The notes beneath the pieces were generated by a model. The model was not told the DNA's origin. It saw only the letters and a list, made by a program, of their open reading frames with translations, and ran no database searches. A stretch of DNA of 64,000 bases from Paramecium tetraurelia (Eukaryota): the NCBI GenBank assembly GCA_000165425.1, contig CT868219.1:128728-192727 (forward strand), in the 5' to 3' direction. The position numbers were made by a program, and so were the translations under genes. Below, in pieces: positions 5,169 to 43,608 of the stretch (positions within the stretch are counted from its first letter, which is position 1; every line of letters starts with the position of its first letter).

Positions 5169-5455
5169 ATTGATTATTAATTAGATATAGCCTTGATTTA
5201 TGATTAATTTAATTTAACAAATTATCAATAAAAGATAATGAATAATAGTTATATATATTTAGATTAATTTTATTTCTATTAATTTTTATATCAAAATAAA
5301 TTAATATAATCAGAAGTGTATTTTCAATGACACTTTAATGTAATAATATGAGTAGATATATTAAATTAACATACTATTTATTAGTATATAAAAATAAGAA
5401 AAATATGAATAAATTCATATATATATAGTCAATGTAATATTTGAAAATTTGGAGT

Positions 5456-6159
5456 TCATTATTGTTAAGCATATAATTTATCAATTTCATCCCATTATTC
5501 CTTAAGATCACGTTGAACCTTGATTCTTTTATAATAAATTTCGCAATCTCGATTACTACATAAGATATCTCCTAATAAAGATCCTTGGCAACTCTAACAG
5601 GTTGTCCAATATTTGTGATAATTGATTTACAGTTCTTAAAGTTTCTAGAAATTAATAATAAAATTACAATTGAAGATTTAGTCATCATTTCTAATGTCTT
5701 ATCCAAACAAAAATTGCATAAAGCTTCATTATCTTTGATAACTTTCTTGCAGTTCAAACAGGCTGTTTTTTTCTATACAAATTTTCCCAAGGCAGAATTG
5801 ATATTTACTTTTGGTATATATCTTGACATGGTGTGATCACCTACAAAGATGCTCTCTGGATTTGGTATAACAAATTCAAATAATCTCATGATAGGTTTTT
5901 TGATTTGATTATTGACATAGTAATCAAAATCAATAGGGAAATCTTTTTCCAAGACTTCTACTGGATCTTCTGCATTTTCATAAGTTTTAGTTCCTTTAGC
6001 TCCTTAAATGATGATGTAAGCAATTCTATCACCGGCAGATGGAGCATTGGATGCATCTCTATTCTGCATTTTTTCAGCAACAACAACATGTGCTTATTTT
6101 TGTTTATAATTTTTAGTTAATTTATTTCCATCATCTTCATTTTGATTTTTCTTTTTTTC

Positions 6160-6194
<35 letters not shown>

Positions 6195-8729: not shown

Positions 8730-8779
8730 TCGAACTAAGAAAATAGCACTTTTTAAAATAATTTTTATATTTAAGATAA

Positions 8780-8787
8780 CCGCGAAA
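8780..8787 (-). promoter_or_regulatory. Candidate E2F/DP-binding element TTTCGCGG about 50 bp upstream of the POLD1 ATG
   Basis: Matches TTTSSCGS; CpG-containing words are rare in this AT-rich intergenic DNA. Confidence 0.5.
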
Positions 8788-9031
8788 TTTCGTCCACCAA
8801 TATATATTAGTTAAGAATTTGGGTACATTTTTAACATCAATTTTTTTAGGAAACAAAAACACTATATTACCCTTAAAAATAAGTTAAATTAAAAAAAAGG
8901 AAATATGGCTAGATATTTATAGATATCGCCATTATTATGCACCTTAATACTTACTAATTACTTAGTTAAAGATACTGGAAATATAAAATTTAAACATTTA
9001 TATATTAAAATGAGTGATCACATCTTTATAT

Positions 9032-11155
9032 TCAATCTTTATCAAGATTCTCATTGTCTTACGCCTCAATGACATTTGGATTATCTTGCTCTTCTTATTC
9101 TTATTCAATTTCTTAATTTTCCTATTACCTAGACTTAATTTGATCCTCTAAATTAATAATAGTCATAATTTTATTATCCTCCTAATTTCTAAGATTGCTA
9201 TCATCATTTTAAAATGAAGTTTTCATTATATTTTTTGGACTCTCTAAATTCTTCTCTTAATCTACTTCAACTTCTTATTAAATATTCTCTTCCTGATTTT
9301 ATTACTTAGATTCCAATTCTCTTTCTATTGTATCAACCTTCTATTATTCGCTTATTATTTAGTTTTGATTTTTCTCATCAGAAATTACAATATTTTAAAT
9401 TTCCACTTCTTTAATCTCTTAATCTTGAATTTATTCATTATCTTTATTAACTTCCTATACTTCAACATTAGGATTAGGTTCTTTCTTTTCTTATTCAATT
9501 TCTATTTCTTGACTTTAAATTTGAGCCTATTGATTTTATTCAATAACAATTGATTTCTCATTATGCTCAACTTAATCTTAAACCAATTATTGATTTTGTT
9601 CTTTTTCCTCTGCATCTTGTTAATTCTCATCTTAAATTGTCTATTAATTATTATGTTTCTAGGAATCATTATTTTAATTATGTTATTATTCTACATTGTT
9701 AATATTTATAAGATTATTTTCTCCCTTCTCTTGCTTTTCAATTATTTCTTCTGATTATTATACTTATACTTTCTCAATTTCCTTATCTTATGGAACAACT
9801 TGATTAATTTGTTCTCCTCTTTCACTTGAATATTAATCACCTCTTTATTCAACCAATAACTAAGTAGGCAATTAAGGAGAACTCTATTTTGATTTATTAC
9901 TTTAAGCAATAATTTACTATTCTATTTGTTCTTCTTAATTTTAAACAATCATTTACTACTATTATATTTGTTCTTCTTGAATATGGTTAGTAATTAACTT
10001 TTCTCTCTTCTAAATTTCCTAAATCTCCTAAACTTGATTTTAATTTTCTGAGTTTTCCTTTTGTTCTCTATTAGTTTCCTATTTCTAATTGTCCTCTTAT
10101 TCAATTCTTTGATCTGCTCCATTTACAACTTAATTGTGTTATTATTAATTGTTTGTATTTTCTTTATTCTCTTAAACATGATTATGTTGGGCTTATTGAT
10201 CGTGCACTGCCATATCTACTTCCTATTCTTATTCTTCTTCCTCATCTGAATCTTATTTATTGATCATGCTCATTCTTTCTTTATTTCTTTCTTCAATTTG
10301 CTCTTTCTGCACTTTTACTTTCTTCTATATGTCCAATTCAAATTCCTCCATTTCGCGCTCTGATTCTTTTACATCAAATCTTTTTCGTTTTGTCAGTTGA
10401 TCTTAACATGCTAATATTTATGCCTTAGCCTTTTACAGTTCTGTATTGGTTAATAGATTTACAGATATGATATTCTCGCATTATGAAACAAGTGTTTTTC
10501 TCAATACATCTTGTTCAACATTATTATTTTCTCTTTCTTTTGCATCTTAAGTGTTCTGAGTGCTTTGGTCTCTTAATTATTATAAAACAATCAGATAACC
10601 GTATTTGATATTTCTCCCTTCATTTGCCCATTTACAAAAATATCTATGTTCTTGAAATACATCAAATTCTTCTTCTACTATTTGACATTTCCTCCCACAA
10701 AATTTGCACAATAAAATTTGGTCCTACTTTATCCAACCAAATATTGCCAAGACTTATTTTGGATTTTATACCAAAAAGTTAAGATTTTGAGGCACCTTAT
10801 CCAAATAAGTCTTTTTCAATTCGATCGGGTCTTTCCAAGATGCAAGACATTCATCATAATATGCCATTCCATACGAATGCAAAAATTCTTATGTGATTTT
10901 AAACTTGATTGCCATAGCTTGACAGTATTGGTCATGTTAATTGATAGCCCTCTCTAAAATGACATCACTAGGTAGTATCTAGTCATCAATCATTATTTTC
11001 TTTTAACAATAAAAGCATTAGAGAGAGTCTTCATGACAAATATATCCTATAGAAGCCATTTTCGAAGGTTTAAGCTTAGAGTCTCTATATGGCCAATTCA
11101 GGAAATTGTAGGAAAATAATCTCTCACAATAATCATCAAAATATTATTGGTACAT
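9032..11155 (-). CDS. NIPA/ZC3HC1/Pml39-like protein (two BIR-like C3HC modules plus long E/Q-rich acidic tail)
   Basis: Intronless 707-aa ORF. ERLFSY..NWP..KPSKMASIGY..LQCFYC..HDQYC and VLAIFGW..LLCKFCGR..FDVFQEHRYFCKW. Confidence 0.75.
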
Positions 11156-11973
11156 TTATAATAAAAATATTAGAATAAAATTAAGCTTTTCTTATATACA
11201 ATTATCATTTTAATTAATTCCCTATCAATTTACTAGAGCTTTAAATGGAGAGTATGTAATTCACCTATCTAAGGCAATAGGTGAAGAATAAAATAATTAA
11301 ATTATTAACTGCTTAACCCAATTTATCTGAATTATTTTATTAAACAATTCTATGGGTATAACTTCTTTTTATTATCCTAAATATATTGATTTATTTTTCC
11401 CAACGATAAATAATTATTAGGAGTACTGTCAATTACATGTGATTAATCAGTGTCTCATTTGATTTCCCTTTATTATTTAAATCTCTTTAATTAATTATGT
11501 TATAGCTTTACGATTGATATTAATAGTAAACCTAAATGATAGTGGATTAAATTGAATTTAATTAATATTAATATAAATATAATGGAAGTCAAATATCGCC
11601 CACCACTTAATGATGTGTATGATAAATAAGCTTAGATTTTAGTAATGAATGCAATTGGTTAGAAAAAAACTTTGTATCATGTTTGAAGGAGAAGAGTGTG
11701 AAAGATGATCTACCAAAGAGAGTATGCAAAGTTGAGAATGTAAGGATAAATGAAATTAAAATATAGATTCTCTGGTTTTTTTTGGAATGCCCTGAGAGAT
11801 CTGGACCTTACGAAGATGCAAATTAATTAAGGAATATTTATATAAAACAAAAATTAGCAGATTTGAATCCAACTGTGCCTGAGCCAAGAAAAAGAAAATG
11901 AGATTGCATTTCACAACAATAATAATAATAATAATAATATAATAAAAATAATTATGAAGCAATCTCTATGAAA

Positions 11974-13807
11974 TCATAAAACTTTAGATTGGAGCAAAGA
12001 TGAGAATTCTTCTAATGAAATTTTGCCATCATTATCATTATCGCATTCCTTTAAAATTTGTATCCAAATCTGGTTAAATTACACTTAAATACCTCATCAT
12101 CAATATCACCCATAACATTTTGTAATTCTGCTTTGGAAATATAATTATCACCATCCAAATCAATAACTTTGAATGCCTATTCCATTTTTTGAACTGACAG
12201 AAACTTTTCTTAATTCATAGCAGCAATCAGAAATTCTAAAAATAGAGAATAGTATTACCAGTGAAATCAACTTCCCCTGAACGATTGATATCAACCAACT
12301 CCATAATGTGATCAACCTAGATGATTGCTAATTCTTAATTATTAGTAACTTGAGTATAACCATCAATTAACTCTTATCTTGATAATTTACCATCTCCATT
12401 TTTGTCAATAGCTTTAAAAGTCTTATTTAATTCATCCTATTCTTGTTGAGTAATGATTTGAGTAGCCATAAAGGTCAGAACTGCCTATTTGAATTTGCTT
12501 TTGGCATGAAATTACTATAGATTTTGCAATGCTCTTTAGTTAATGACATTGGAAGGTGCATTATTTTAAATCCATTTGTCATTGTAGGCTTCTTCAGCAC
12601 TTAGACGTTTAGCCGGGTTGGGATTGAGCATATTCTTGATAAGATTTTGAGCATCCTAACTAATGTGAGCCCAATCTTCATGGTCAAATTTTAATTGAGC
12701 TGCCTTAACTCTCTTGAGAATCTCAGATTCACTTCGACCAGAGAAAGGAGGATATCCACATAATAAAATGTACAGAATTATGCCACAGGACCAGACATCG
12801 CATTTTTCATTGTAATTCTCCAATAGGACTTCAGGTGCAATGTAATAGGGAGTGCCTAATCTCTTAGTCATTCTCTTTCCATTTTCAAATTTTCTAGAAG
12901 TTCCAAAGTCGATTACTTTAAGATCAGCATCAGGGGAATCGGAGACGAAGAGTAGGTTCTCTGGTTTGAGATCTCGGTGTACGATCTTCTGGTTGTGACA
13001 ATACCAAACAGCACTAAGGATTTGTCTCATTAGTTCTGCAGCCTTCTTTTCACTAAAGAAGTTCAAGCTCTTGATTCGATCAAATAGTTCTCCCCCAGAA
13101 CAATACCTATCCTCAATGAATTTAGTACTTACTCGGTTACCAGATAGTAATTCTTGTCATCTTCGAATAATTCATACAATTTTACAATGTGTGGATGGTC
13201 TAAATTCTTCAGTATATTCATTTCCGAGAACAATTTTTCTTTGTCTTCCTTCAATATCGAAGTCTTCTTTAATTATTTCATGGCACGATCCAATTTGGTC
13301 TTTTTGTGAGTCACTTTCCACACTTTTCCAAAGGCACCTTCTCCCAATACCTTACCAGTAATGTAATGATCTGAGATTTGACCTTTCTTCAATTATACAA
13401 AAACATCAACATTTATGTGCAACTTTTGATCCATTTCTAAGATAACTCATGACACATCATACTTTATAGAGATTGCTATTCAAGAATTTTCTTTCGATCA
13501 GTGTCAGAATTCTATCGCTCCAATAATTATTCCAATTCTTTTGATACCTTCATTGAAACTTTCTTTGGCTCCTCATACACTTCCTTTGCATCATCAGATA
13601 GGTTTTGTTTCAATCCTAAACCGAAAGTTTATGCTGGAATATATGCTTAACGTTTGCTAGCAGTTGTTTGCTTAACAACCCTCTTTTAAGATCCTTAGTC
13701 ATTATCTCCAAAAGCTGCTGATTGAACTGAAAGTTCTATAAATCAAATCGATTATTGTTAATACCATCTTGAGTTTGCAAATTTGTCTTACAACAAGTTG
13801 CTCCCAT
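11974..13807 (-). CDS. Calcium-dependent protein kinase (kinase + 4 EF-hands; N-terminal MGATCC acylation motif)
   Basis: [31 protein letters not shown]-hands DKNGDGKLS, DINRSGEVD, DLDGDNYIS, DNDNDGKIS. Confidence 0.96.
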
Positions 13808-16949: not shown

Positions 16950-19900
16950 ATGTTTAAGTAGGCACATTCCACTAATTTACTAATAGAGATGGTCGAGCGA
17001 GTCGATGATGACAAATTCCTGGATCGCAAACTGGAGTAGGAGTGCGATAGTCTCAACGAGAAAATAGGTATGCCATATCTACAATTCAGATACAAGAAGT
17101 CTAATTTTGAAGGCAATTGATATCTTTGGGAAACAGAAAGTTAGTTAAGATGCACGGATAATAGAGATCACTGGAGAGAAACAGCCTCAATCCATTCCAA
17201 ATATTGTCAAGAATCAAAAGTATAGCATCATCACCTTCATCCCTATTGTGCTGTTTGATCAATTTAGGTACTTCTTTAATTTGTTTTTCCTCCTAATCAC
17301 TCTATCTCAATTCATAGAGCCCTTGAAAGTGGGATTCCTATTTTCTTATGTGGCTCCACTTGTGTTTGTAAGCATTATTGATTCTATTCAAGGTCCTCAC
17401 TCTCACTCTAATCAAAGAGGCCTACGATGATTTCAAACGATTTCTAAGAGACAGGGAAGCTAATTCGTAATTGTATAGTAAGATCTTATAGAATGATGTG
17501 GTTTCAATTAAATCATCCTAATTACGAGTTGGAGATGTAATAGAAGTGCATGCAAATCAAAGAGTGCCAGCGGATTGTGTGTTGTTGAGGACTTCAGAAA
17601 AGACAGGGACAGTGTTCATAAGGACTGATCAATTGGATGGAGAGACAGATTGGAAATTGAGGAGTGCATTAAAATTAACTTAATTGGGATAGTTTTTTGG
17701 CAGCACTTTGATAGTGGAGGCTCCTAAATTGGATATCTACGATTTTAAAGGTAGGATTAAGATAGAGGAGGACAAGGAGTCTGTATCAATTGATAATACT
17801 TTATGGGCAAATACATATGTGGCAGCTGGGAAAGTGACATGTGTTGTCATCTATACAGGTAGGGAGTGCAGATCATCGATGAATTAAAGAAAGAGCAGAT
17901 TTAAGATGGGCAGATTGGATAAGGAATTAAACTTTTTGTCTAAAGTATTGTTTGGTTTCATGTGTATCTTAGCAGGTGGTATATTGATACTTACACCTGA
18001 TAATGATGTCTTTATCAACCTATTATAATTCTTTAGATATGTGTTGTTATTGTCAAGCATAATACCGATCTCCTTGAGAGTCAATCTTGACTTCTCTAAA
18101 TTGGTATTTTCAATGAAGATCAATTCCGATAAAGATATAGCTGGAGCCATGGCAAGGAATTCCTAAATTCCTGAAGAATTGGGAAGAGTGCATTACATAC
18201 TCAGTGATAAAACAGGTACTCTGACCTAGAATTGCATGACATTCAAGAAATTAGCATTGGAAAGCAATACCTATACAACCAAGGATTTGAATGTTGTTAA
18301 TAAAATATTGAAGAGATAATTTTCAGCTAATCCTGTTCCTTTGCATGATATCATAACTGGGAAAACGAAGAGAAATTCTAGAAGGAATAAAGATGTAGTG
18401 CTTAGAGATTTGATCTAATGTTTGTCTCTATGTCACAATGTCACTCCCATCATAGAGGATGGAATCAGATCGTTTTAGGCTAGTAGTCCTGATGAAATAG
18501 CATTAGTGTAAATCAGTGAATAAATGGGTATTTAATTGATTTCGAGAAATGCTGAATAAATGGTTATTTAAACACCTAATAAGGTTGAAAACTTTAAAAT
18601 TGTCTACGAATTCCCTTTTAGCAGCGAAAGAAAACGAATGGGAATTATTGTTCAATCTGATTCAATCGATGGATACTTCTTTTATCTCAAAGGGGCTGAT
18701 TAAATCATCAAGAATAAAGTACCGGAGGTTTAGAGAGGATTCCTTATGGACGAGGCAGAAATGCTTAGCAGAGAGGGATTACGTACTTTGGTGATGACAT
18801 AGAAATATATAACATCTGAGGAGTTCAAGAAATGGCAAGTTGAATATGAGGAGGCAAAGTCATCTATGGATGATAGAGAAATCAAAGTTAACCATGCTTT
18901 GGAGTAATTGGAATAAGGGATGGAATTTTTAGGAATATCTGGAGTGGAAGATTTATTGTAGGAAGATATTAATCATTGTATTGATTAACTGAGGAATGCA
19001 GGTATTAAGATTTGGATGTTGACTGGGGATAAAGTAGAAACTGCCTAATGTATAGCCATATCTGCTGGACTCAAAACTCCACAATAAGAGATGTTTACTA
19101 TCAAAGAAGCTGATTCTTTAAATCTTCAGAACCTTTTGAATTAATTTTCAGCCAAACACAATTCAATCTTGGTAATAGATGGAGTTTCATTGAGTCTTGC
19201 CTTTAATGATCATTTCGATTAATTTATGTATGTAACTAGTAGAGCACCTTGTGTGATATGTTGTCGATGTTCACCTACCCAAAAAGCTTAGGTTGTTGAA
19301 GCAATCAAGAAAAATACGAATTAGGTTACCTTGGCCATAGGTGATGGAGGAAATGATGTATCTATGATATAGGCAGCAGATGTAGGGATTGGAATAGTTG
19401 GGAAGGAAGGGAAGTAGGCAGCATTGGCCAGCGATTTTTCGATAATGAAATTTAAGGACTTGTCCACTCTTCTGTTGTGGCATGGAAGATTGGCTTATAA
19501 GAGATCTTCAGTGATGGCTTAGTTTGTTATGCATAGAGGATTAGTGATCTCAGTAATTCAGGCGATCTTCAGTTTCTTATTCTATGGGATTGCCATACCC
19601 ATATACAATGGCTATTTAATGCTTGGATATGCTACTGTATTCACAGTGTTGCCAGTGTTCTCTTTGATCTTCGATGAAGACATCACCAAGAACAAGGCTT
19701 TAGAATTCGCGGAACTCTACAAATCCTTGCAGAAAGGAAGGGAAGTAACAACCAAGACCTTCTTGATTTGGTTATGGAAGAGTATCTATTAAGGCACTGT
19801 GATTATGGCTTTATCCTTCTTGTGTTTTCAGAACACTTTTTTGTAACTTGTAACAGTCACTTTTACAGCTCTGATAGTGATAGAATTACTGAATGTAATT

Positions 19901-20143
19901 ACTGAGCTCAAGACCTTCAAATTCATTACTTTGGTCAGTTAGTTCATCTCAATTAGTTTATATTTGTGTTGCATATACTTTATGCGTGATGTCATCAATT
20001 TGAGTGAAATTACAGTCAATTTTGTTATGAATGTGGGATTGCTCGTACTTGCTAGTTGGTTGCCCTTGCATCTGGTGGAAAAGGCTATTCATAAGTACTA
20101 TCCTTCGGAGGCTGATAAAATAATGGAAAAGATTAATCATTGA
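16950..20143 (+). CDS. P4-type phospholipid-flipping ATPase (ATP9/NEO1-like)
   Basis: [77 protein letters not shown]. Confidence 0.96.
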
Positions 20144-20163
20144 ATTTTTATAATAAAATATTA

Positions 20164-23100
20164 ATGAAAATGTCCCTCCTTCAACTTGAGCGTTCCTATT
20201 TGGATGCTCTGTCTGAATTTGGTCAGCATGCACCGAAAACAATTCAAGCGTGTGTGACTCTCATAGAGACACTCAATCAAACAGGTCAATATTAAATAAA
20301 ACAGAATTAGCCAGGGGAGAAATACTTTTAAAGAGCAACTGAATTGGCTGCTGGATTGCAATCCGAAGAATTGCTCGATGTGAAGTACTTCACTTACATG
20401 TTGTATGCAGAGTATATGGAGCGCGATCACAATAATAAGTAAGCCTACAATCTACTCATCCAATTACTACCTTTGTAAAAAACAAATCAAAAACCCATCA
20501 TCATGACCTAAATCTAAATCCTGAATCATGTAATAGAGAATGGCCGACTTTGCAAAATAGCAAGTGTTGCGTCCTTGAATGAGAAATTGTTGAATCTGAT
20601 GGAAGAAATCGGATTGACATTTTACCTTCAAAAACAATTCTCAAAGAAGTTTTAATTAATTCTATTACAAGCACTCTCATTCTAAGCCAAAATATATCAT
20701 AAACAAAATAAAGACAGTTAAGCAGCATAGTTATATTTTCAATCGTTTCATCTCTCGGAATAGTTGCTTGGAATTCACGAGAAGAGAACTCAAGAATATA
20801 AAAAGCTATACGAATAATTAAGTGACAAGATCTCTGTCAACATCGAAATATAGAGTCAAGATGAATGCGAAGACGACCAACCCTAACAACTATAAGTTAC
20901 ACCTCGAGAAGAAATTCTTAAATCCTTTCGTCCCAAAATCACCTCATTCAACAATTACATTATCAACGTAGACTCCGCTAGAGCTCCCAAACCCTCCAAA
21001 AAGGTCGACAAATCAAATAAATTAACCACTTCTTCATCCAACAACAAACCTACTATTTTAATCAAACCCACCCCCTTGTCCTCCTTATTCATTATTAAGG
21101 ATCATTCCAAAAGACCTACTAGTTCCTAAGGCACCACAAAGTTGACTAGTCCTACCAGAGGTGCCTCCTTTCTATCCAAAAAAAACACTGAAAGATTTCA
21201 TCATAAGATGCCTTCTCTGGAATAGAGTGCCATCAAAGAATTAGATGACACACTGCCTCCCAATCTCACTAATGAATTGCTCATCACTAGACCCTAATAT
21301 GAAGTCAAACCATACAAAAGAATTGAATTCTATAAATAACACACCTCCAGACAAACCACATCCACTTACTAAATCTAACTCACCATTCCAACTAGACCCC
21401 AAATCAGAGAACCCTCCAAAAACACCATTACTTCTAAAATGGATGTTAAGAAGATATCTAATACTCCCAGCACCCAAAAAATTGAAAGGCCTTCATAAAA
21501 AAAAATCTTAGCTCCTGAAATCTAACCAACCGTCCTTAATATCAAACCCATAGGCAGTACTAAAAATTTAACCAATGACAACGATGAAGATATCACTAAA
21601 TAAGAGGAGAACAAAGTCTTATCCTTTGAAGGCGATGAACCTATTAAAGTAATTTCTCCCCAGGATTCGATTATAGCGAAATATTTAGAAACTCATCCTA
21701 TGGAAAAATTGTTGGAGGCTGTGGAGAGAATAAAAGGAAAACTAAGAAAATACGTTTAATACTCTCATAATAGGAAAATAGAAATGTAGGAAAGAAAACA
21801 TTAGCATTCTCCCGGTAGAGTCATTATGAGCAATAAATAGTAACAGTTAAATAGATCCAATACTTTAATTGATATTGTTGAAAAAAAACTCCTTGAAAAC
21901 GAAGCTAGTAAAATCATTTATAAGTTTTTCTAATCATCAAATACTATGGAATGGTATCCTGTTCATTTTTACGATAAGTTATTCACAGATTTCGAAACAT
22001 CTAAATGGACTCTTGAAAATCCCAGAATAAGAGGGCAATTCCTACACAAATCATCAAAAACTGATGATTGTCAATAAATTAATCTTGAATAGATATAAAA
22101 TATTCTCTTTAATCTGTAAAGACATTCAACCCTTTAAGTAATTGGATCAATTGAAATCTCTAATCACACAAGAAAAATTCAATTTCGATTTATAATAGAC
22201 ACACTAGTTGAACATTATAAAGATATACAAACTTACGATGACATGATGGATCTATTTGATTAACTATTGAACATATACTTGATGCAAGAAGATTTATTCA
22301 GTGAATGGCTGGACAACCGAAAAGAGTAGACACTTTACAGAGTAAGTAAGGGTAGGGTTTCATAGGCAGGTTAAAAGAGATAAAGCATCAATATTGAGTT
22401 TACCAAAGAAAGAAGAATTGAGCTACAAGATAATATGCAATTCTATTAATATCTTTTGTCGAAGGTTCTGTTTCTGATCAAAAGAATGAGTTACATTAAA
22501 ACAATGAATGGCTATAAATTTAAGTCAGTTCCCTAGAATCAACAAGTCTCCATTTAACAATATAACAATTAGATTTATTATAAAAAGTTAGAAAGAATTA
22601 GCAATTATTTTCAGTATTTAGACTGCGAAATTTAACATTAGAGAAGCAAGCCAATTTTGAGTCAAAAGAGACATCGCAAAAGGAATAAAGATAGGCATCT
22701 ATTTATTGCTCAGGAGAGGAAACAAACAATAATAAGAGAAGCCACATCTCCTGCTTAAGATGACGAATCTCAACAGCATTCATAACGAGGCAGTCCCTAC
22801 ATCTCCTTAAAGGATACTGGCATTATCATAGGTAATGAATTATAATCTCGATAATTAATATTGGGAGGAGAAACTCCACTCATTCAACCCTAATTGAAAC
22901 AACCAGGCAAATCAAACTGGAAGAACATTGCCCATTAAGAGGCACCTCCTTAATTGATAGACATATTTACTTTAGAAACCTAAGATTACTTGTAAAGGTA
23001 CTTTCCAGAATTCAGACTCAACACTCCTCCTATTGACTACCATCCTAGCCCAGCTCCAAACATTAAGAAATTATTAACAGAATCTCAATATCATTTTAGA

Positions 23101-25620
23101 TAGGAAGTACCAAGTAAGAAATACGTTAAATTGGAATACAAGCCAATTCACTTGGAGAATTATTTAATTCTGACATAAGTGGTTAAAATTGATTAACAAT
23201 TTTATTATCTCACCTTGACTGACAAATTGTAATTAAAATAAATTTTTGGAAAGGATCTATGGGAAGACCAATTAGAAATCCAATTGAAAGAATTGATCAA
23301 TTACAATGTCGGAAGAACTGGATACATTATAGATTTAATAGAATTATAAAATATATTATAATCGAAGCTCCAAATTGTTAATTGTCGGATTTAAATCAAA
23401 TAGGATGAGACTGATAATTCATATCAAAAAAAATTAAATAAAATCCTCAGAGTAAATAAAAGACTTTATTAAGTTATTCAATCAATTGAGTTCATCGAGG
23501 AAGGACTCAAAGAAATGTCATAGGAGAGTAATAGTCAATAGGAAGATGGTGTTGAATTGATTGAAGAACAAAAGAGGGAACCACTTATTGATATTGTGTT
23601 TATACTTGGGATCTTAAACAACAATAACTATGTAGAATACATGAATTATTTGCCCAGTTGTTATCTATTAAAAAATTCAAATGGAAAATTTATGTTGTAA
23701 GACCCTGAATAACCTAGGAAACCTAAATTCCCTTATAGATTAATCTTATCTCATGAAGATATGAACAAACACATTTCTAGAACGAACGAATAAACAATCA
23801 ATGCAAAAGATATCACATTATTTCCTCATTACAATTCAGTATTTCTAATTAGATAACAATAATTCATTTATAAACCAATTGGAGTGAAATTACGTATTCT
23901 AACAGATCTAAAAAAATTGCATCAAGATTTTAGAAATGGCCAATCGAAGGCTCATCTATTAATTTACTATAACAATCATAAGAAAATATTCCTTAAACTT
24001 AATTCCGAATAGACAGAAAAATGGGCTCATCTATTTCAGATCGATGGATGCATGCGTTGGCATATTTTAAATTATAAAACTAAATTAAAAAAGACATTAG
24101 TGGGATTTAAGTTGTATTAAAATGAGAATCGGGTTTCATAATCGAAAGATCCGAGATTCTTATTGATGCAAGATAAGCTTACTCAAGCAAAACAGTATTT
24201 TATTTAAACAAAAATTAAATCCATTGGATGTGTTTTTGTTTGTGTAAAGATTCACTCTTCAATAATGTTAATGAGAATAATGCCAGCTGGAAACAAGAGC
24301 AAATCTCATCTCTTTATATTTTAAATTGATTAATAAGATCCTATTAAATTGACCTATACTTTATGTAAATAATTTATTCTAAAAACAACCTAGACTTATT
24401 CCAAATTAGAGCTCATGCCTATCACAAAAAACTAAATACGTAAGCAATACCTCTTATCAAATTAATACCATGATAACAATGTGTTGATTGGTTAAAAATC
24501 ATATTCAAGAGTGGTTTATAAATAAGTTAAAAAAATAGATAAAAGCTATTTCATAATAACAGTTACCTTAATCAAAAATTATTTCTAGATTTATCTCTAC
24601 AACCAAAATACATGCAGAAGATTTTATTTTACAATTCACAGATCAGATTTCCTAATTATGAACTAATACTTTTTAGATTCGATCTTCCCAGAATAACCAC
24701 ATGAAGTTGTTGAATAATTCTTCAGGCCTTGGAAGTTGAATGAAATCTTAAAGATCTATTCTCTAATTAAAAAAGCTCCAGAAACTTTTAGAAATAGAAC
24801 CTAACTCTATCTTCAATAGATGTCACAAACCAAAAAACTACTTAAAAGATCTGCAACATCTAATTTCTCAAGTGCTAGTGTCATTTAGAGATAATCGACA
24901 CTACAACTGAATCAATTGCTCGAAGAACTTAATGAAGATAAATTAAATAAGTCATGTTGGTTATTTGACAAGTTGTTATTACGTAAATCCAACAGTGTAT
25001 TTGAGAATAAGTTATGGATGGAAATAATCAAGTAGATGAACATCAACCAAAATCAAATTGTTTTGGACACTTTTAAGACAGTTTTATCTGAACTTGTGTA
25101 TTTCAATGATAGAACTTGCAATTTTCTTTGTTATATTCCATGCCAAGAGATCTAATAGTCTTTTAGGTGGTAACCAATTAGATTGCGAATTCATTCATAT
25201 GACACTTGCAAAACTATTGATGTCCCTTTAAATATAAGAGGCAAACAAGTTCAAGTCTATAAGTTAGGCAGTTCTTTGTATTTGAACTACCAAAGTAAAT
25301 AAGAAATACCAAGCAATCAGGAAATTATGAAGGTCAATAAAAATAACGATTCCGAGTATATCAAATATTAATTACTTTATAAGGGGGCATTTATGAAGCA
25401 TAAGATGCTCTTCATAACTATATATTTATACAATGAAGTATTTCGGATTAGAATCTTCAGCTAAACTAACTCTATATCTAGGAAATTGGATGTGAACTAG
25501 GTCGAATTAAAGATTCCGTATATTAGATAATTATTAATACTGAATCCCTATGAAGCTGGACGTAGATTGAGCATCATCTATAGGAATAATTTCATTCATG
25601 CTTCATTTTTAAAATTGTGA
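20164..25620 (+). CDS. Large (about 1818 aa) uncharacterised protein with N-terminal TPR-like helices and S/P/K-rich region
   Basis: ATG 20164 and TGA 25618-25620 are in frame; TPR-like AAQLYFQSFHLSEQLLGIH segment. Confidence 0.8.
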
Positions 25621-25784
25621 TGTTTTTATTCATATAAATTTCTGTATATAGCAATTAAATTAATTTATAATGTCAATTGAGATTTAATATATTGAGATTA
25701 TTTAGAAATTTGAGTTAGCAACATGTTGAAATTCAAGTAAACTAAAATGTGTAGTGTAAATATTTATTTTAATTTTTAATCGAT

Positions 25785-28470
25785 TCAATTTTTAAGTTAC
25801 TTTGTCGAATCATTCGGATTCTTGAATCTTATATAGAAATCCTGTTAGTCATATTAATTTAAGAGTTTTTCTTTATTGTATCCATCATCCATTCTCTCTA
25901 GTAACCATTAAAACAACTATTTTTCTGATCCGAAATCACTAAGATAAGCTAACAATTAATAAATAATCGATACTTTAACATAATGGATGGATAATAATTT
26001 CTTATTCAATAACATCAAGACAGACATACTTGAGGATAAATTGTTTTATGTAACATTAGATGTATTATTAAACACTCTTTTCCTCTAAGTATTGCAATTC
26101 AGAAGTCAAGCCAATAGAAGCATCCTAGTATTCTTCAGTAAAAATGAAAATCAACCCTCTTGTATCAAGAGTAAGGATTCTAGGGTCATTATTAGGTAAT
26201 TAATGAAAATTCGGAGCGGGTTTATTTTTTCTCAACATTCCATGTTTAATTTGAGGTAGGGTAGTGATTAATTTGTTTATAGAATATGCGAAATCTACTT
26301 TTTTTGGATGTGGTGGTAAGATAGAACCAATAATGGTTTTTAGTATGGACTTAGGTTCTTCTTTGACTCCTTTCTTTTAGAGTTTATTAACAAAGTATTC
26401 GGTTAAAGATCTATTGGTTTTAATATATATATTATTACTGATGAAATCTCATCAATTAGAAAATATTAACATAGGCTGCTAATTTCTTTTCTTATGAATA
26501 ATCAATCATTGTTGATTTTTATAATTCAGTTGTTAAATGAGTTAATTAAAAATACTCCTTAAATCCTTATTCTAGAATGTCCTCCTTGATGGTATTTTTA
26601 TCAACAAATTTCTTTTGAAATTCTTTAAATTTCTTAAACAATTTGTCTAGAATTTCCATGAGATCTGAAGAATTTCCTGTATATTTTTAGTAATTGTTTG
26701 CAGCTATAAATTATAGGAAAATTGGGAAAGAATAATATTAATTAGGAGTTAAATCTTTTTGAGATTCTAATGGTATTATTAATTAAGATTCAAGTAAATG
26801 TTAGCCAATCTATTGGATTTCCAATTAATTCTTGCAAGTGTTTTAAAGATAACTAAAAATGTCCTGACCTAATACACCAATATATTCACTAAACTTACTA
26901 AATATTTTACATTTAATTGACGAATCCATAAATCACTTTTCTTAATTATATTTTTTCTATCATATCTGCAGAAATAGCAATATAATTTTCATCCTGTACT
27001 TATTCAGTTGTTTCAGGTTATAATTAAGGGCCCAATTACAATCGTTTGACTGATATTAAATTGGCTAACAATAATTGATTATTTAATACTTTCATTTGGA
27101 TGGTCTTTATAAAATTAATTAATTTTTTCCTCAATACACGGAATAGCTGCTAAGTCTTCAACGGTTGGCCTGTTATTGGGATCCTTCTATAAAGTCTTCT
27201 CAATTAGCAATTGGAGATCTTAATCAACAGATTAATCCATATCATAAGGCTTATTCTATATCATTTCAAAAATAATTTGGATGTTATCATGTTAAAATGG
27301 TCGTTTCAACATAACCAATTCATATAAAGCACATCCTAATGCCCAAATATCAGATTTTTTGCCATAAGGTTAGCCTCTGATGACTTCAGGTGACATGAAA
27401 TAAGGAGTTCCTAAAAAGGTTTATGCAAAATTGGCATGTGTTCCTAATGCTTTTGAAATTCCAAAATCTCCCAATTTGATAACTGATTCTATTTAAAAAT
27501 ATGATAAAATTTAAACCTTTATTTAGAAACATATTTTAAGTTTTGATATCTCTGTGGAGGATGTTTTTAGAATGCATAAAATGAATTGCAATAACCAATT
27601 GAGCCATCCAAGCTAAAATTTAGTCCTTTGGAACCTAAGTGCCATATCTTTGGTATTCAGATATTTTCTCAGTCAAAGACCCTCCTTCTGCATATTCCAT
27701 TATTATATTCAAAGACTCATTTTCAGTGAAACTTTCATAATATTTAATAATTGTTGGAGCAGTTAGTACTCTTAATAAACTCACCTCATTTTCAGCATTT
27801 TTCCTTTCTTATTCATTCATGAAAAATGTTGGAATTACCTATGTTCATTTATTATCTTACTTTCATAGCATATAATTCTTAATCAGTACTTTTCCTTACT
27901 AATTCGACAGAACCAGAAGCACCTTTGCCGATATTTCTCACAATTGTGTAATAGCCTTTCTCGTTTTAGTTGCTCTAATTAAAATTGATATAGTTTTATA
28001 CATTTCTTGGCTTAGGCTTTTTTTTTACGAATGTTTAAAGTCCTTGAAGTTTTTTAAAATTGACAGGTTTTACCATATAATCTTCTGCTCCTGCATTTAA
28101 ACAAGCAGCAACTGTTTCTGTCTCATCATCACCACTCATCATTATCACTGGAACATCTTTCAATTTATCAATACTTGAAGCTCAAATAAAGACTTACGCT
28201 TTTATAATTTACAAAAGTTCCAGGCCCGTCATCTCAGGCAAACCCAAATCAAGCAAAATCAGATCAAACTCATTTTCTGTTTTCAGCAGTTCATCCCTTG
28301 CTTAAATACCTGTTTCACACGCCACTACTTGATAATTACATAATTGCAATAAATCAATTAAAGCTATTCCTAATAAATAGATTTCTATTGAGACTTTAGA
28401 TAGGAGCATCTTCGGCTAGGAGTACATTTATTATCTCTTTAGCTTATTCATCTCTTTTCACCCTTTACAT
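25785..28470 (-). CDS. Response-regulator receiver - NEK (NIMA-related) kinase - DEP - DUF547 fusion protein
   Basis: REC: VLLAED, FDLILLDLGLPEMTG, VIMMSG, MVKPV. NEK: IGKGASGSV, HRDIKTQN, KLGDFGISK, GTPYFMSPE. DEP-like EYIGVLGQDIFSYL..IGQHLLESQLI..YYSF. DUF547-like EKKLAAYVNIFQLMRFH..IKHGMLRKN..NDPR..YLSDFG. Confidence 0.9.
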
Positions 28471-29163
28471 AAAATTATTTAATAATTAATTCAATTCAAG
28501 ACTAGAATATACTTGTAAATCATTCAATAATCATTTTTATAAACTATTAGATCCTTTAATTTTAGAAATAATCAACAAACTAAATGACAGTACTTGACTA
28601 AAAATTTTTAGTATTTATGAGGTTTAAAATTTAATCTTTTTTAACTCGAGAATTTAAACAGAGTATTAATAACAACTAAAAAACTAATTTAGATTATGAG
28701 AATTCGTAAATTTATTTTTCAAAAATATTATGATTCAATCTCTCTTAATCAAATTACTATATTTTAATTGTGATCACTTTATTTTGACAGTAAAAATTAA
28801 TTTTATCTTGTTTTTTAATAATTCTTGATTGATTTTAGCGAATCTGTAAATTTATAATAAATTCAAATTATTTATAAATATGTAATAATTGGGTTTTTTA
28901 AAGTAAAAATAATCCAATTTTTAATAAATGATATATAAAATTTATACTAAATATATTATTCTTGCAGTTATCTTTCCTTATTGCAAGTTTCCATTTATTC
29001 GAGTAATCACATGATTCCATGATCAAACAACACTTTTAAGATCTACATAAAATATAACTATTAGTAGTATTAACAAGAAGAAACATTTATTTAGAAATTA
29101 AAGATAATTACTATATTTCATTTTAAATAAAGTAATTTCTTATAATAATTTATTTTTTTTAAA

Positions 29164-30230
29164 TCATTAAAGAAGTTTCTATTAAAACTAACTAGAATTG
29201 AATTTTTTTTTAGCAAGGTCATTCTACAAATCCTTAAATTTCTTTAAGATCATCAAAAAATCATTATCAATAGATTCTAAAAATGATTTTTGTAAAATTA
29301 ATTCATTTTTTTATTCCCCAAATTATTTCTATAGCTCCAAATAATTTTACTCTATTTGCATAACTGTTATTTTATTCTCATCGCTAATTCTGGTTAAGTC
29401 TTAAGAAAAACAGCTATTTTCTATAATTAGTACTTTTACTTAATTTCCTAACGCACTTATTATAAATGAGTTAAAAACCCTCTTTAATTTTCAGTTATCT
29501 CTTAATTAGTTGAATACACTTATTTAAATAACTTCTCATTTTAAATAAGTCTATCTTGACAATCTTTTAATTGAACATTTATTTGTTGTTCAATTTTTTT
29601 GGAAAACTAAGTTTCTTTTTATGACATTTTGTTAACTTGTTCTGTTAATACTTTTATCTTTTTATCAAATTATTCAATTTTCTGCAATATTCCTTCTTCA
29701 TTCATTTTAGTCTTAGATTCAGTTCTCATTAATTCAGTATTAGCTCTACCCACTTAAGAGCGAGATCTTAGAGGTTTTTGTGATTTTATCAATTATACAT
29801 CTTACTGATGCACTGCTTCAGGAGAATAAATGTCTATGTCAGATTATTGACTGAATTTTCCTAGATAAACAACTTTTATACTTTATTTGATTTAATCGGA
29901 TTGTGTATCATCATTTTATTTTTAGGTAGAATATTAGTCTGGCGGTTTGAATTGGATTAATTGAGTATTTATCCATTTGATTTCTTCTCTATTGTCTAAT
30001 CTTTATTCTAATTCTAACAATTTATCTTCGATCATTTTCAAAATTTGAGCAAATAATTATTTGGCAATTACTTCTTACTAACAATTAGCTTCTAAAAATA
30101 ATGAAAATCCTAAAGGGTTGAATTATTAAAATTCAGCAGATTCTTTAAGAATACATTTATTTGGATCCTATTCCTGTATAGATTATCCTTGGAGCATGAA
30201 TTCATTTAGAGTATAATTTGTTTATTACAT
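29164..30230 (-). CDS. Hypothetical coiled-coil protein
   Basis: Long ciliate-code ORF from ATG 30230 (alternative ATG 30197); heptad-rich; at least one short intron near 29420. Confidence 0.65.
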
Positions 30231-30240
30231 AAAATTTATT

Positions 30241-32436
30241 ATGGGAAATTTTGTCAAGAATTAAGAAGTAATTTAGAGAAATTTGGATGAAAGTAAAAGA
30301 CAATAATAAAATTTCTAGTTATACAGAGTTAAGTCTAAGAATCTCCAAATATTCTGATTAAGCAATCTAAAATTGGGAATGTGGAAATTATAAAATTGAA
30401 TATGTAAATAATCGAAGTCGAGTTAATCTATGATTCAGTCGATAAAATTTAAGTGGATTTAACATATAGTAGTTAGGTAAATTGTTCATTATCCTTCTAC
30501 ACCTATATAACAGAGATCAAGGGGTCTAAATCACAGAGGTTTAGTTAATAATAATACTATTTAGATTTGAGAGAACCATGTAAGAGAGCATAATTTAGAA
30601 GTTCAAATGTCCCTAAGGTTTGAACCATCAATTTCCTTCTAGATTCGTTGAATTTATGATTACAGATTTGCTAAAATTTAACAGAATAAAGGCTACTCCT
30701 GAAGTTTCACATCACACTCTTATAATTGAGATGGTAAACAAATATATTTATATAGACAGAAAAGTCTTACATCTAAAAGCTTTTAGATAATATACTTTTA
30801 CAGGATAGATTGTAATGAATAGACTTTTAGATGTGAATTAATAAACACTAAACAAATTATCGTTTACAAAAATCGTATGTATGAAATTCACGAATTGTAT
30901 GGGGTTAAAAACACTCCCTTTAATCCAGAATGGAATCCAAATACTATTGAGGATAAAGAATGTGTAATATGCTTTTGTAACATCATAAACACTGTCCTAT
31001 TACCATGCAAACATATGTGCACTTGTTCAATATGTGCTGATCATATACTAATGAGTTAAAAAGTAAAATAATGTCCATTGTGCAGAATTGACATTGATAA
31101 TTATTTAACATTAGAAATTAAAGATAAAGTAAAGTAAGATTTATAATTACGATAATTTTAAGAAGAGTAATAGAAATATTTAGAAGCTATTAAGGAGAAA
31201 AAGGACTAGTAAGCTATAAAATAAAGTACAATAATGGAATAATTAAAATCTAAGGTTCATTAAGATTAAATGTAAAAATTAAAATTGTTTAATGACATCG
31301 ATGATTTTCAAAGAAATAATTAAGTTGTTGAAGGTCTTTATAATAATGAAATCTGCTATTCAAATGAAGAAAATTTAAGTGATCGTGATAACAATTAAAA
31401 TTAAAATTCGTTTCATGATAAAATCAAGTAATTTAGTGAGGAAGATAACTTAAAGGCTATGCAATTTAGTGAGGATGATAAATAGCGCTATTCATCAAAT
31501 TAAAGAATGAGTAGTTATGATTTAAAATAGGAAAGAGGGATTATTAGTAGTTTTTAGCATTCTTAAGAAAAGTAAAACGACTAATAATAATAACAATCTG
31601 ATGATAGCGATGTTTCTCAAGAGTTTCCATAAATTTCATCCTCAAAATAATAATAGTATTAATATTCATTTGATTATTAAAATTATGATGAATAGTCTCA
31701 TTATAATTCTTAGTAGTAATTAACAAATACAGATAGGCAATTTGTTTCGAAGCAACCATAATAATTTAATTAGGGGACTGATAAAGCACTTCCTACTATT
31801 CCTGAATATTTTAAGGAAAGTTCCGATTTTTTTTAGTAGATTATTAATAATGATAAAGATGATAACATTAAATAAAATAATATTGGTATTTAATAAAATA
31901 AATATTTGGATGAATTTCCTTAGATATAATCATAAGAATTAAACAAATCTTAATTATCTTAGTAATAATAATAATAATAGTAATAATAATAATTGTCATT
32001 TAGATAATTAAAGAAATAAAAAAATTAACAAATATAGTTTAGTTAATTATAATAAAATGATTATGAATAAGAGGATGTATTAATGAATTAATTTATCTAA
32101 AATGATGTTTATAAAGAAGCTGAAAATGATTTTTAACAATAATATCAATTTTAAAATGATCTTCCTTAAGAACAACTAATTAATGGCTAAGTTTTAAAAA
32201 ATAGATAATAAGATGATGAAGTTTATAATAATTGCATTTAGGAAGTGGATGTTAATAAGCAGTAGGAAGATAATGAAGATTTTGGGTTAGTTTAGAAAAA
32301 TGATAATTTATAGTAAATTATTTATGAAGAGAGGTCTTCGTAAAATTAATTACAATAATAAATTTAAGAGGAGAAGAATTATGCTTGTAATTAAGAATAA
32401 AAGAACGAATAAATTTCATTAATAGTTTTTGATTGA
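30241..32436 (+). CDS. MGRN1/RNF157/LOG2-like RING E3 ligase with very long Q/N/E-rich tail
   Basis: MGN N-terminus (possible myristoylation); MYEIHELYGV followed by CVICFC..LLPCKHMCTCSICA..CPLCR; TGA 32434-32436. Confidence 0.85.
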
Positions 32437-41359: not shown

Positions 41360-42058
41360 TCAGATTTCTGTTAATAAATTATCAATCTTCTACATTGACT
41401 ACTGTCCAATTTTGGAGAACTAAGAGTTGTTAATTTGCTAAGGTACTCCATTGAAATTTTACGCAACGTATGGATTTTAATATTATTACATGTATTAAGA
41501 CGCTTAAAAATTTATTGGGGGAGGACTCTGAGAATATATGGGAACTTGATTCTGATGTTGAATGGGCAAGTTTTAATTTTATTACTGTAAGTAATTTTAT
41601 TACTATTGAGAGTAATTATAGTAATTATGATACTATCCATAGATATAAGGATCTATATAATCTAAAATATCCTTCTTCATGTTCGATATCATTAGCTCTT
41701 ATTTTTTTATTAATTGCTCTTCTAATTGTTTTAATTCTAGTTATCTCTACTCATTTTTTTTTCTTTCTTTTTCTTCTTTTTCTTCCTTTTTCTTTTATAA
41801 GCTCTTTTCATCCAGCATGTATTATTGCTAGTATGGATTAAAGTTCTGCATATAAGGTACAAATGTTTATGGTTATTATAGAGGGTAACCAGAAGGATTA
41901 TAGAATATTTAATTATTTAAGTGTTGAGGTTCCCTTGGCGGCATACCTTAAAAATTATAACCTTGCGGTGCTCTATGATTTAAGGTAAAGACTCTATCTT
42001 GTAATTCTTTAAGTCTTCTATCAAATTAGTATTACCCAAAATCAACTCCTAATGACAT
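41360..42058 (-). CDS. Hypothetical Q/P/Y-rich protein with central charged coiled coil
   Basis: Intronless 232-aa ORF MSLGVDFGQYQFDRR..LLTEI*. Confidence 0.7.
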
Positions 42059-42107
42059 TAAAATAAGTTATTAAAATTAACAATTACAAATTATAAGAAT
42101 AAATTAA

Positions 42108-43608
42108 TCAATTTAAGTATTTTGATAAGCATCGCTCCAATCGAGTAGCTGCATGTATAAAGTGTAATTCTATAATAAAACTAAAAAAGTACTTTCATAA
42201 GTTCTCCTTTGACCTTCTACTTTCATTCTCTATACAGTATATTCATCGGGATTATCTAGAAGTTTTGAATAATCCAACCATAAGAATTTAGGCCAGATAG
42301 TAATATTTCCTTCGTACTTTTGTATCAATAAATTAGACATTCTACACACCATTTTAGGCAGAAATCCTATACTCATAATTTACTGAATTCGGTATTTAAT
42401 TTCCCCTAAAATAAATTGCACTAATTTATCAGTAATCTTATGAATAATAGTATGGTCACTTCGATGAGATGTAAGAAAGGGGAAAACCCAAGGATTAGTT
42501 TGTGATACAATTGTATAATTGATGTTAAATTGTTCAGCCAATTATTACATAGGCAGATCTGCACTTATTGATCCATCTACATATTTGATTTCACCTTCAA
42601 AGATTTCCCCTTCTTCATTTTTATAGTATAAATGAGAGGCTCCATAAACTCCAGGTAGAGAGCAAGAACAACAAACTGCTGACCACACTATTACATTAGG
42701 AGAGTTAATATAATTAAGCAAGCAATCAGATGATGAACAATCCTTTCCAGTAACCATAATGTTCATAATTCTTCCTGTATTCTTATATGCTTCCAAAAAT
42801 GTGACATCTCCATAAGCTTTCTGTAAAAATTACTTCATTTGTTCCTTCTCTAACATGTAACCTTTTGTTAACAATCTACTTAACTTGTCTAGAATGTCAA
42901 ATTAGGTTTTTTGTTCAAACATGGAGTAATCATAATATTTTGGTTAAAAAATTGTTTGAATATCTGTTGCTGTTCCTACTAAACTGACTAATATAGCCCC
43001 TGCTGAACTACCAGTCATAACTTTAGGTAAAATATGCTGTTTATCCAAAATATTAGCTATTCCACAACTATACAATCCCATGATTGCTCCACCTGAAAAT
43101 AACAATGCAGTTTGACCAATGGCCTTTTGTAATTCTTGGAAAAATTGAGTTTTATTTGGAAATTCAGAGTTAAAAAGAAATTCTAAACATTTTTCATATT
43201 CCTAAGAATAGTTTAAGAATAATTTACTTCTTAAAATTCTTCTATTAAATTCTTTGTTTTTGTGAAAGCGTGAGAATAGAGTTTTGGATTGAGAATATTC
43301 CCTATATTTCTATTGGCATTTTATCTAAGCAGCTAGCAAATTAGAGGGATATTCTTTTCCTATTTTGCCATTCTCAACTTTTGACTCAAACTCTTAATGT
43401 ATTTGTATTGATATAAATTGGATTCCTCCTTTTATAACCACTACTATATATAATCTTATTAATCGTGTTCCTTCACTAATTACTGCCATTTCTCATAGTT
43501 CTCTTCTTTTTCGATTATTCTTAAAAACTTTTATCTTGCACGATTCTTTTCAAAAAGCATGGTGACACATTCCAGAAGATACTTGATTAGTTTAAAGATG
43601 ATGTTCAT
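42108..43608 (-). CDS. Patatin-like triacylglycerol lipase (SDP1/TGL type with DUF3336)
   Basis: TALLFSGGAIMG, GSSAG nucleophile, YVDGS, LLNYINSPNVIVWSAVCCSC, IVSQTNP. Confidence 0.92.

Follow-up and report, generated by a model that had tools for sequence, protein, structure and literature searches.

What lies downstream of the many histidine kinases of ciliates? Tetrahymena thermophila has 70 of them by one account, all but one hybrid (PMC6324907), or 83 as counted in its genome paper (PMC1557398), and an expanded set is also described for Ichthyophthirius (PMC3341644). The Tetrahymena set (70-83) is among the larger eukaryotic ones, and the available text of the literature consulted names no response regulator or output for it. 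Here we describe a candidate encoded in a 64,000-nucleotide stretch of AT-rich ciliate DNA from Paramecium tetraurelia (contig CT868219.1, positions 128,728 to 192,727; hereafter the window). One gene on its minus strand, GSPATT00011440001, encodes a receiver domain (REC), a NEK-type serine/threonine kinase, a DEP domain and a DUF547 domain, in that order. Judging from sequence, we consider it rather likely that the family to which this protein belongs is a terminal response regulator whose output is the NEK kinase.

The gene model, derived from the window alone, contains nine GT-AG introns of 22-28 nucleotides each and a 2460-nucleotide frame with a single terminal stop under genetic code table 6 (Table 1). 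Its product of 819 residues (P0009 in our numbering) is letter-identical to XP_001443237.1, an uncharacterised P. tetraurelia protein. A first-pass annotation of the window had proposed a single gene with four modules, and this is borne out by one stop-free spliced frame whose architecture is repeated in relatives. It had also placed the motifs of the receiver (LLAED 28422-28408, LILLDLGLP 28262-28236, IMMSG 28145-28131, VKP 28073-28065) and of the kinase (HRDIKTQN 27556-27533, DFG 27468-27460) correctly.

The same fusion recurs in several ciliate classes with its switch residues intact. Word-index protein searches with the C-terminal part of the protein returned the aurelia cluster only, and it was HMMER and a motif scan that reached other ciliates. 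An exhaustive HMMER search with the C-terminal part yielded 30 proteins, with DUF547 found in 28 of the 29 scanned; cluster look-ups for 10 of the 30 led to Tetrahymena malaccensis, Furgasonia, Nyctotherus and Pseudomicrothorax, so that the classes Nassophorea and Armophorea are included. When the first 200 residues were used as query, three receiver-plus-kinase clusters stood among the 120 listed of 169 matches, two from Paramecium and one from Ichthyophthirius (IMG5_014920). Full-length proteins with all four domains were obtained from the transcript assemblies of Nyctotherus (P0167, 811 residues) and Pseudomicrothorax (P0168, 867 residues). A metagenome scan with a single protein gave no matches. 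Scanning by motif gave 546 confirmed stretches, and all metagenome locus counts given here refer to the best 80 of these: 22 carry all four domains, 4 are family members truncated where the contig ends and 54 are kinase only, the last without any receiver match. Five loci (L001, L003, L004, L006 and L009) are gene-sized contigs running from telomere to telomere with the four domains in one frame, which Pfam confirmed in the three of the five that were scanned; their C4A4 telomeres suggest spirotrichs or armophoreans.

In a tree of 70 kinase rows, a branch with a Shimodaira-Hasegawa-like approximate likelihood ratio (SH-aLRT) of 100 separates 32 family rows from 38 other NEK-like rows. The tree was built by a quick method with a midpoint root; its controls are unnamed NEK-like kinases, 16 of the 54 having been dropped as more than 80% alike, and with such controls it shows one family branch and no named NEK subfamily as sister. 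By these sequence data the family has one origin within the sample of kinases tested, and the four-domain fusion is old in ciliates. No heterotrich member was seen, and the available text of a Stentor kinome study (10.1101/168187) names no receiver, though its domain table or supplements may. Closer to the window gene, the ohnologue GSPATT00011221001 (P0004) is 92% identical at the protein level, with identity falling from 99% in the receiver through 97% in the kinase and 89% in DEP to 84% in DUF547. A third copy, GSPATT00011220001 (P0132), falls in a second subfamily; P0132 and P0004 bear consecutive gene numbers on the ohnologous scaffold, and tblastn within the window saw no tandem paralogue remnant or second copy beside the window gene. 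The public models of P0003, P0005 and P0132 are mis-spliced at the first intron, with 15 residues missing from P0003 and P0005 and 9 extra in P0132, and the receiver alpha1 helix is therefore broken on paper. In T. malaccensis, P0135 lacks the glycine loop, the DFG motif and half of the receiver and keeps HRD; it may be a paralogue that has become a pseudokinase, or its gene model may be wrong.

The receiver is canonical by sequence and fold, and its phosphorylation is predicted. Pfam Response_reg matches residues 16-126 (E 6.3e-23; 81.5 bits against a cut-off of 30.2), and comparison of the fold with a solved receiver gave Z 21.2 and a root-mean-square deviation (rmsd) of 1.5 over 121 aligned residues. 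ARR1 is among the closest solved receivers, as the top match for one exon piece and the eighth for the other. The residues expected of an intact receiver, E20/D21, D66, S96, Y115, K118 and P119, are all present, and the first-pass annotation had likewise called the receiver intact. Across the receiver-bearing metagenome loci the acceptor Asp and Ser/Thr96 are each kept in 24/24, while loci covering the respective sites keep E20 with D21 in 20/20 and K118 with P119 in 19/19; Asp66 is also found in the Paramecium, Ichthyophthirius, Pseudomicrothorax and Nyctotherus proteins. Conservation over the receiver columns has a median of 0.71, and 31 of 111 columns reach 0.95. From these alignments, the predicted receiver chemistry is under long-term selection. 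The alpha1 helix of receivers is the docking face for His-donor domains, and here its exposed positions are conserved (F24 20/21, Q25 21/21, R26 20/21), D31 also being nearly invariant. The alpha4 region is not conserved, and an OmpR-type alpha4-beta5-alpha5 dimer, also considered, is disfavoured because positions 98-106 are variable in the family.

The kinase is likewise complete. Pfam Pkinase covers residues 149-400 (E 3.7e-67), and the catalytic set comprises G156/G158/G161, K178, E196, H273-R274-D275, K277, N280, D293-F294-G295, E320, D332 and R392. Its earlier assignment as a catalytically complete NEK-type kinase agrees with this set and with the best matches, which are all NEK, best-hit similarity of the kinase domain being the yardstick for NEKs in PMC2031824. 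Among solved structures, a ranking that is not a reciprocal search of the nr database, the 16 best distinct Protein Data Bank sequences are NEK1, NEK7 or NEK2 constructs at 204-155 bits (NEK1 204 bits; NEK7 and NEK2 155-162 bits), followed by PLK2 as the first non-NEK at 144 bits, and the fold search of the kinase is also led by NEKs. One NEK trait, an N-terminal kinase domain, is absent, the receiver (residues 14-131) preceding the kinase. All 17 checked kinase motif positions are kept in the covering family loci, except for one E-to-Q change and two TGA codons, and the activation-loop Thr is invariant (26/26 family loci), as it is in other NEK-like kinases. An autoinhibitory tyrosine of the NEK7 type (Y211 here by alignment) was dropped as a family trait because the position holds Phe in 19/25 and Tyr in 4/25 loci. 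Two residues after the activation-loop Thr (window 27412-27420), 24/26 metagenome members have a Cys, compared with 2/54 controls, and Paramecium has Leu; a redox input through this Cys in other ciliates is possible.

How might the receiver reach the kinase? The family differs from the 54 NEK-like controls at eight kinase positions, three of which fall in the alphaC-beta4 loop, where V is found in 25/25 family loci vs 1/54 controls, G in 23/25 vs 0/54 and T in 25/25 vs 0/54; the usual loop is replaced in the family alone. This loop forms an N-lobe surface on which kinase regulators are known to dock, and it lies close to the entry of the linker from the receiver. The distance from the receiver KP to the kinase glycine loop is 36-41 residues in P0009, P0004, P0010, P0011, P0167 and P0168, 45 in P0132 and 28 in P0135. 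Given a short linker of conserved length and a family-specific N-lobe loop, coupling in cis fits better. When the receiver and the remainder of the protein were modelled as a complex without an alignment, the score was 0.00 twice, which speaks neither for nor against a contact.

The C-terminal modules are less readily recognised. In Pfam, DEP (PF00610) is matched in an exon piece only (E 0.009; 16.3 bits, below the cut-off of 32.7) and DUF547 (PF04784) at residues 600-697 of P0009 (E 1.2e-4; 22.5 bits, below the cut-off of 27). The DEP-like and DUF547-like modules of the first-pass annotation are thus both below cut-off here, but DEP is supported by fold and both by relatives. DUF547 scores 37.9-62.8 bits across P0010, P0132, P0135, P0167 and P0168, and is above cut-off in the paralogues P0010 (37.9 bits) and P0132 (41.2 bits) as well as in P0167 and P0168; DEP is above cut-off in the orthologue P0168 (36.1 bits). 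The predicted fold of residues 443-529 matches the DEP domains of pleckstrin (Z 8.9, rmsd 2.8, 84 aligned), Dishevelled (Z 8.8) and P-Rex1 (Z 8.3), with those of RGS7/9 and Epac also among the matches. Ten of the 11 best rows of a wide fold search are DEP-bearing (Z 6.8-8.9, rmsd 2.4-3.0 over model residues 1-87), the other being Sec62. A family profile search returned DEPTOR (E 9e-6) and also P-Rex, and the Atlas returned DEP+DUF547 clusters first (0.91, 205 shared features). Folded alone, residues 443-812 are predicted to form one confident body, with a predicted local distance difference test score (pLDDT) of 86.3 and a predicted template modelling score (pTM) of 0.86. For the DUF547 part, the fold searches gave no clear solved relative, the best helical matches staying below Z 7, which is no proof of a new fold.

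This pairing of DEP with DUF547 is also the C-terminal half of class IV glutaredoxins (Grx), and the REC-kinase unit had been suggested to stand in place of the Grx module. The domain order agrees with that suggestion, but the likeness goes no further. The cysteine pair IHFxLxCG..CP occurs in 3/25 covering rows, P0155, P0156 and P0162, which are the three highest-scoring DUF547 rows and none of which is fused to a kinase; P0162 itself is a Grx-DEP-DUF547 protein, and its pair is lost in the kinase-fused members that cover the site. The pair is found in 0/18 covering metagenome family loci and is absent from the window protein, and a branch of 100/98 in a 25-row, midpoint-rooted tree splits the ciliate units from the Cys-bearing rows. 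In many metagenome members one Cys remains, two residues ahead of the canonical first position; the window protein has neither the pair, nor this single Cys, nor the activation-loop Cys. Pfam found no Grx domain in P0009, with the domain present in P0162 as control, and an NCBIfam scan gave sub-cut-off bacterial matches only. With its cysteine pair gone, DUF547 links the family to class IV glutaredoxins as a shared module only.

The gene is transcribed. Two oligo-dT RNA runs placed 117 and 211 reads on it; their first mates align to the plus strand, the usual sign of minus-strand RNA in stranded libraries. Run X22 has read depth in every bin of 25672-28523, the 3' part is only partly covered by run X21, and depth is zero upstream of 28524 in both; the intergenic region upstream (28471-29250) is long for the window. 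The loose ends of reads are consistent with splicing of 3/9 introns (2, 3 and 4). At intron 3, within the REC-kinase linker, three X21 reads carry the spliced junction with 0 mismatches, and they match the window copy exactly, including a Pro codon at a site that encodes Gln in the ohnologue. The loose-end consensus of X21 at intron 4 has 3 mismatches in 21, and those reads probably come from the ohnologue; more generally, the loose ends at introns 2 and 4 (1 and 3 mismatches) may do so. A check for a single mRNA had been called for, and it succeeded in part: the linker intron is spliced in reads, but among the reads and contigs listed none bridges kinase and DEP or DEP and DUF547. Two runs in contig form gave short pieces without joints, and RNA depth is very low at 26664-26787.

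The data can be brought together in a model of three steps. A membrane hybrid histidine kinase would pass phosphate, probably through a histidine phosphotransfer (HPt) protein, to Asp66; hybrid kinases usually need HPt (PMC6324907). The receiver, tethered to the N-lobe by the short linker, would then shift a contact with the kinase, most likely at the alphaC-beta4 loop, and so switch it; we prefer release of inhibition followed by autophosphorylation of Thr309, the opposite sign being possible. Finally, the DEP-DUF547 body would be non-catalytic and would either hold the kinase at a site on the membrane or cortex or bind its substrate. DEP domains have been proposed as membrane-site targeting modules (PMC13621322), and in Arabidopsis a DUF547 protein that has no membrane helix is located at a polar domain of the plasma membrane (10.64898/2026.08.17.745151). 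The occurrence across ciliate classes of a receiver-NEK fusion with intact switch residues makes the family a strong candidate for a missing output of ciliate histidine kinases. A bolder extension, which we regard as doubtful though worth stating, is that the family may be the principal conserved terminus of two-component signalling in ciliates: dozens of membrane histidine kinases would converge by phosphorelay on one receiver-gated NEK, held at the cortex by DEP-DUF547, that would adjust cilia, basal bodies or division. A role of the family in cilia or division is suggested by analogy with other NEKs, which act at cilia or in division (PMC2031824).

Several observations weigh against the proposed switch. 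The window copy departs from the family consensus beside the acidic pair (A22, P23, I24), at G68 and at N121, and Nyctotherus P0167 has Leu in the Ser96 column; together with the losses in P0135, this Leu indicates that some members may be decayed or mis-modelled. In the full-length model (pLDDT 73.6, pTM 0.49) the domains are not fixed relative to each other. The Paramecium DEP has 5 Lys and Arg vs 8 Asp and Glu, and with this acidic surplus direct binding of acidic lipids is not indicated. Pfam detected no HPt protein or histidine kinase among the 22 long frames of the window, and no experiment on any family member was found in the literature.

The same receiver conservation would be expected if Asp66 were phosphorylated and served to set location, partners or lifetime, or if the receiver were a phosphate sink or feedback tap, with activity governed by the activation loop alone. 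This account, to which we give a minority share of credence, gains from an activation-loop Thr no different from that of other NEK-like kinases (26/26) and from a predicted model that leaves the receiver unplaced against the kinase; the length-conserved short linker and the receiver-associated N-lobe loop favour coupling in cis instead. It is less probable still that the receiver is never phosphorylated in vivo and is structural, dimerising or metal-binding, like a pseudo-receiver, the kinase having other inputs. No donor came to light and P0167 is without the Ser/Thr switch residue, as such a reading would have it, yet pseudo-receivers typically lose the acceptor Asp, which here is kept in all 24 loci and in the proteins of the four genera.

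The C-terminal half invites a different account, in which DEP-DUF547 would have inherited a redox function from class IV glutaredoxins and made the kinase redox-linked. The DEP-DUF547 order is common to class IV glutaredoxins (PMC13621322; P0162; Atlas), and the single Cys near the canonical first Cys in many metagenome members and the activation-loop Cys in 24/26 could be read in this way. We nevertheless judge it very improbable: the canonical pair is confined to three of 25 rows, none kinase-fused, with none among the 18 metagenome loci, and the window protein has neither the pair, nor either single Cys, nor a Grx domain. There remains the suspicion that annotation joined two neighbouring genes, prompted by the absence of a bridging read or contig across the two C-terminal joints and by the very low depth at 26664-26787. 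The single stop-free frame, the same architecture in the ohnologue and paralogues, and two transcript-assembly proteins and five telomere-to-telomere contigs that are each complete in a single frame exclude an artefact for practical purposes. A terminal response regulator with NEK output remains our preferred reading.

How does such a protein compare with known systems? It resembles human NEK1, NEK2 and NEK7 and the Tetrahymena NRKs in kinase sequence and fold, in HRDIKxxN, in the activation-loop Thr and in having a C-terminal interaction module, and it differs in the receiver that precedes the kinase and in the distinct alphaC-beta4 loop. The kinase domain of NEKs is nearly always N-terminal, and the few exceptions are all from Tetrahymena; the available text names no receiver (PMC2031824). 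With class IV glutaredoxins (Grx-DEP-DUF547; Arabidopsis GRX-like 1 and 2) it shares DEP followed by DUF547 at the C-terminus, whereas it has REC-kinase in front, no Grx and no DUF547 cysteine pair. RegA and Ssk1 are terminal response regulators with enzyme or kinase-cascade outputs. As in Dictyostelium RegA, yeast Ssk1-Ssk2 and plant ARR1, an intact receiver is expected to be fed by a His-Asp relay; here, however, the chain that holds the receiver also holds the output, a Ser/Thr kinase, in place of a phosphodiesterase, a DNA-binding domain or a separate MAP kinase kinase kinase. Eukaryotic response regulators are described as transcription factors or as governing MAP kinase, cyclic AMP or Raf-like elements (PMC6324907).

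Fusion of a receiver to a Ser/Thr kinase as such is not unique to ciliates. Atlas clusters with PF00072 and PF00069 in one chain come from bacteria, chlorophytes (cyclic nucleotide monophosphate (cNMP)-kinase-REC) and ascomycetes (about 1250 residues), and unlike the present family they show no DEP or DUF547 among the at most three families shown per cluster. The ascomycete kinases are presumably Rim15-like, and the receiver of fungal Rim15-type kinases is C-terminal and degenerate. The two best Atlas receiver-kinase clusters (about 865 residues; 138 and 81 members) are probably the same ciliate family. The DUF547 module has also been reported on an Entamoeba PTEN (10.1101/2021.11.29.470399). 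Literature searched by full text and by gene identifiers yielded no description of a REC-NEK-DEP-DUF547 protein, in agreement with the first-pass annotation, which knew of no characterisation; a passing mention in kinome surveys or supplements is possible.

Table 1. Positions of the gene and its features, numbered along the window
Feature	Position	Strand	Details
Whole gene	28470..25785	minus	10 exons, 819 residues, code table 6; P. tetraurelia GSPATT00011440001
Receiver (REC)	28029..28431	minus	residues 14-131; E20, D21, D66, S96, Y115, K118, P119; Pfam and fold
Predicted phospho-acceptor Asp66 codon	28248..28250	minus	alignment
REC-kinase linker, short	27951..28028	minus	residues 132-148; holds intron 28001-27975
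NEK-type Ser/Thr kinase	27130..27950	minus	residues 149-405; GxGxxG, K178, E196, HRDIKTQN, DFG, activation-loop T309
Family-specific alphaC-beta4 loop	27752..27769	minus	V202, A205, T207; family V-x-x-G-P-T; coordinates from exon table
DEP	26711..26993	minus	residues 443-529; fold matches, family profile, weak Pfam
DUF547-containing helical unit	25815..26710	minus	residues 530-810, Pfam core 600-697; cysteine pair absent
Intron 1	28370..28394	minus	25 nucleotides; exon model
Intron 2	28174..28197	minus	24 nucleotides, in-frame TGA inside; loose end in 6 reads, 1 mismatch in 14
Intron 3	27975..28001	minus	27 nucleotides, REC-kinase linker; loose end in 3 reads, exact
Intron 4	27839..27860	minus	22 nucleotides; loose ends in all four runs
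Intron 5	27489..27516	minus	28 nucleotides; exon model
Intron 6	27065..27089	minus	25 nucleotides, between kinase and DEP; exon model
Intron 7	26889..26910	minus	22 nucleotides; exon model
Intron 8	26411..26438	minus	28 nucleotides; exon model
Intron 9	25949..25973	minus	25 nucleotides; exon model

By Pfam, the neighbours of the gene include a FEN1-type nuclease (2-1324), DNA polymerase delta (5110-9017), a zf-C3HC protein (9035-11224), a P4-type ATPase (17327-20140), a RING protein (30730-32433), a patatin (41363-43492) and an alpha-mannosidase (49551-52820). Other kinases of the window lie at 1770-3437, 12230-13156 (with EF hands) and 53589-54575, and a frame of 1834 residues at 20116-25617, convergent with the gene, has no Pfam match.

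Two metagenome contigs of the family, L005:2-2383 and L007:1-2370, pointed to an unusual genetic code. Both end in a G4T4 telomere and carry the family gene in one frame, their proteins being 78% and their DNA 71% identical. TAA, TAG and TGA all occur in frame in both, TGA 11 times in L005 and 8 times in L007, and at 4 shared positions. In both contigs TGA stands on the invariant Arg of HRD and on an Arg of DEP; it lies opposite an Arg codon of the partner at 9/11 non-shared positions, the share of Arg being 3%. TGG stands opposite Trp and TGY opposite Cys, as usual. CpG is no rarer in these contigs (observed/expected ratio 0.38 in L005 and 0.71 in L007) than in sister loci (0.49-0.78), a point against damage of the C-to-T kind. 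The reading frame appears to close with a TAA right before the telomere, at the place where family members end. These data suggest a code with UAA/UAG read as Gln, UGA read as Arg and context-dependent stops; for UGA as Arg they concern one gene in two contigs, and are a lead and not proof. The available text of a 2024 survey gives UGA as Cys or Trp in ciliates and does not mention 'arginine' (PMC11687900), and the combination of UAA/UAG as Gln with UGA as Arg is possibly an unreported ciliate code. A plain NEK-like locus, L068:55-865, has in-frame TAG and one TGA inside its kinase match.

Taken together, these results offer a concrete and conserved output candidate in two genetic model organisms, one that hinges on a single residue, Asp66. 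They would also place DUF547 in a setting other than glutaredoxins, one where the module can do without its cysteine pair. If the preferred reading is correct, the family would show a way of regulating a NEK for which we found no description. On the bolder extension, a His-Asp switch would act directly on a kinase of the cilia and cell-cycle type within one polypeptide, and it would date back to the ancestor shared by the oligohymenophorean, nassophorean, armophorean and, by inference, spirotrich lines.

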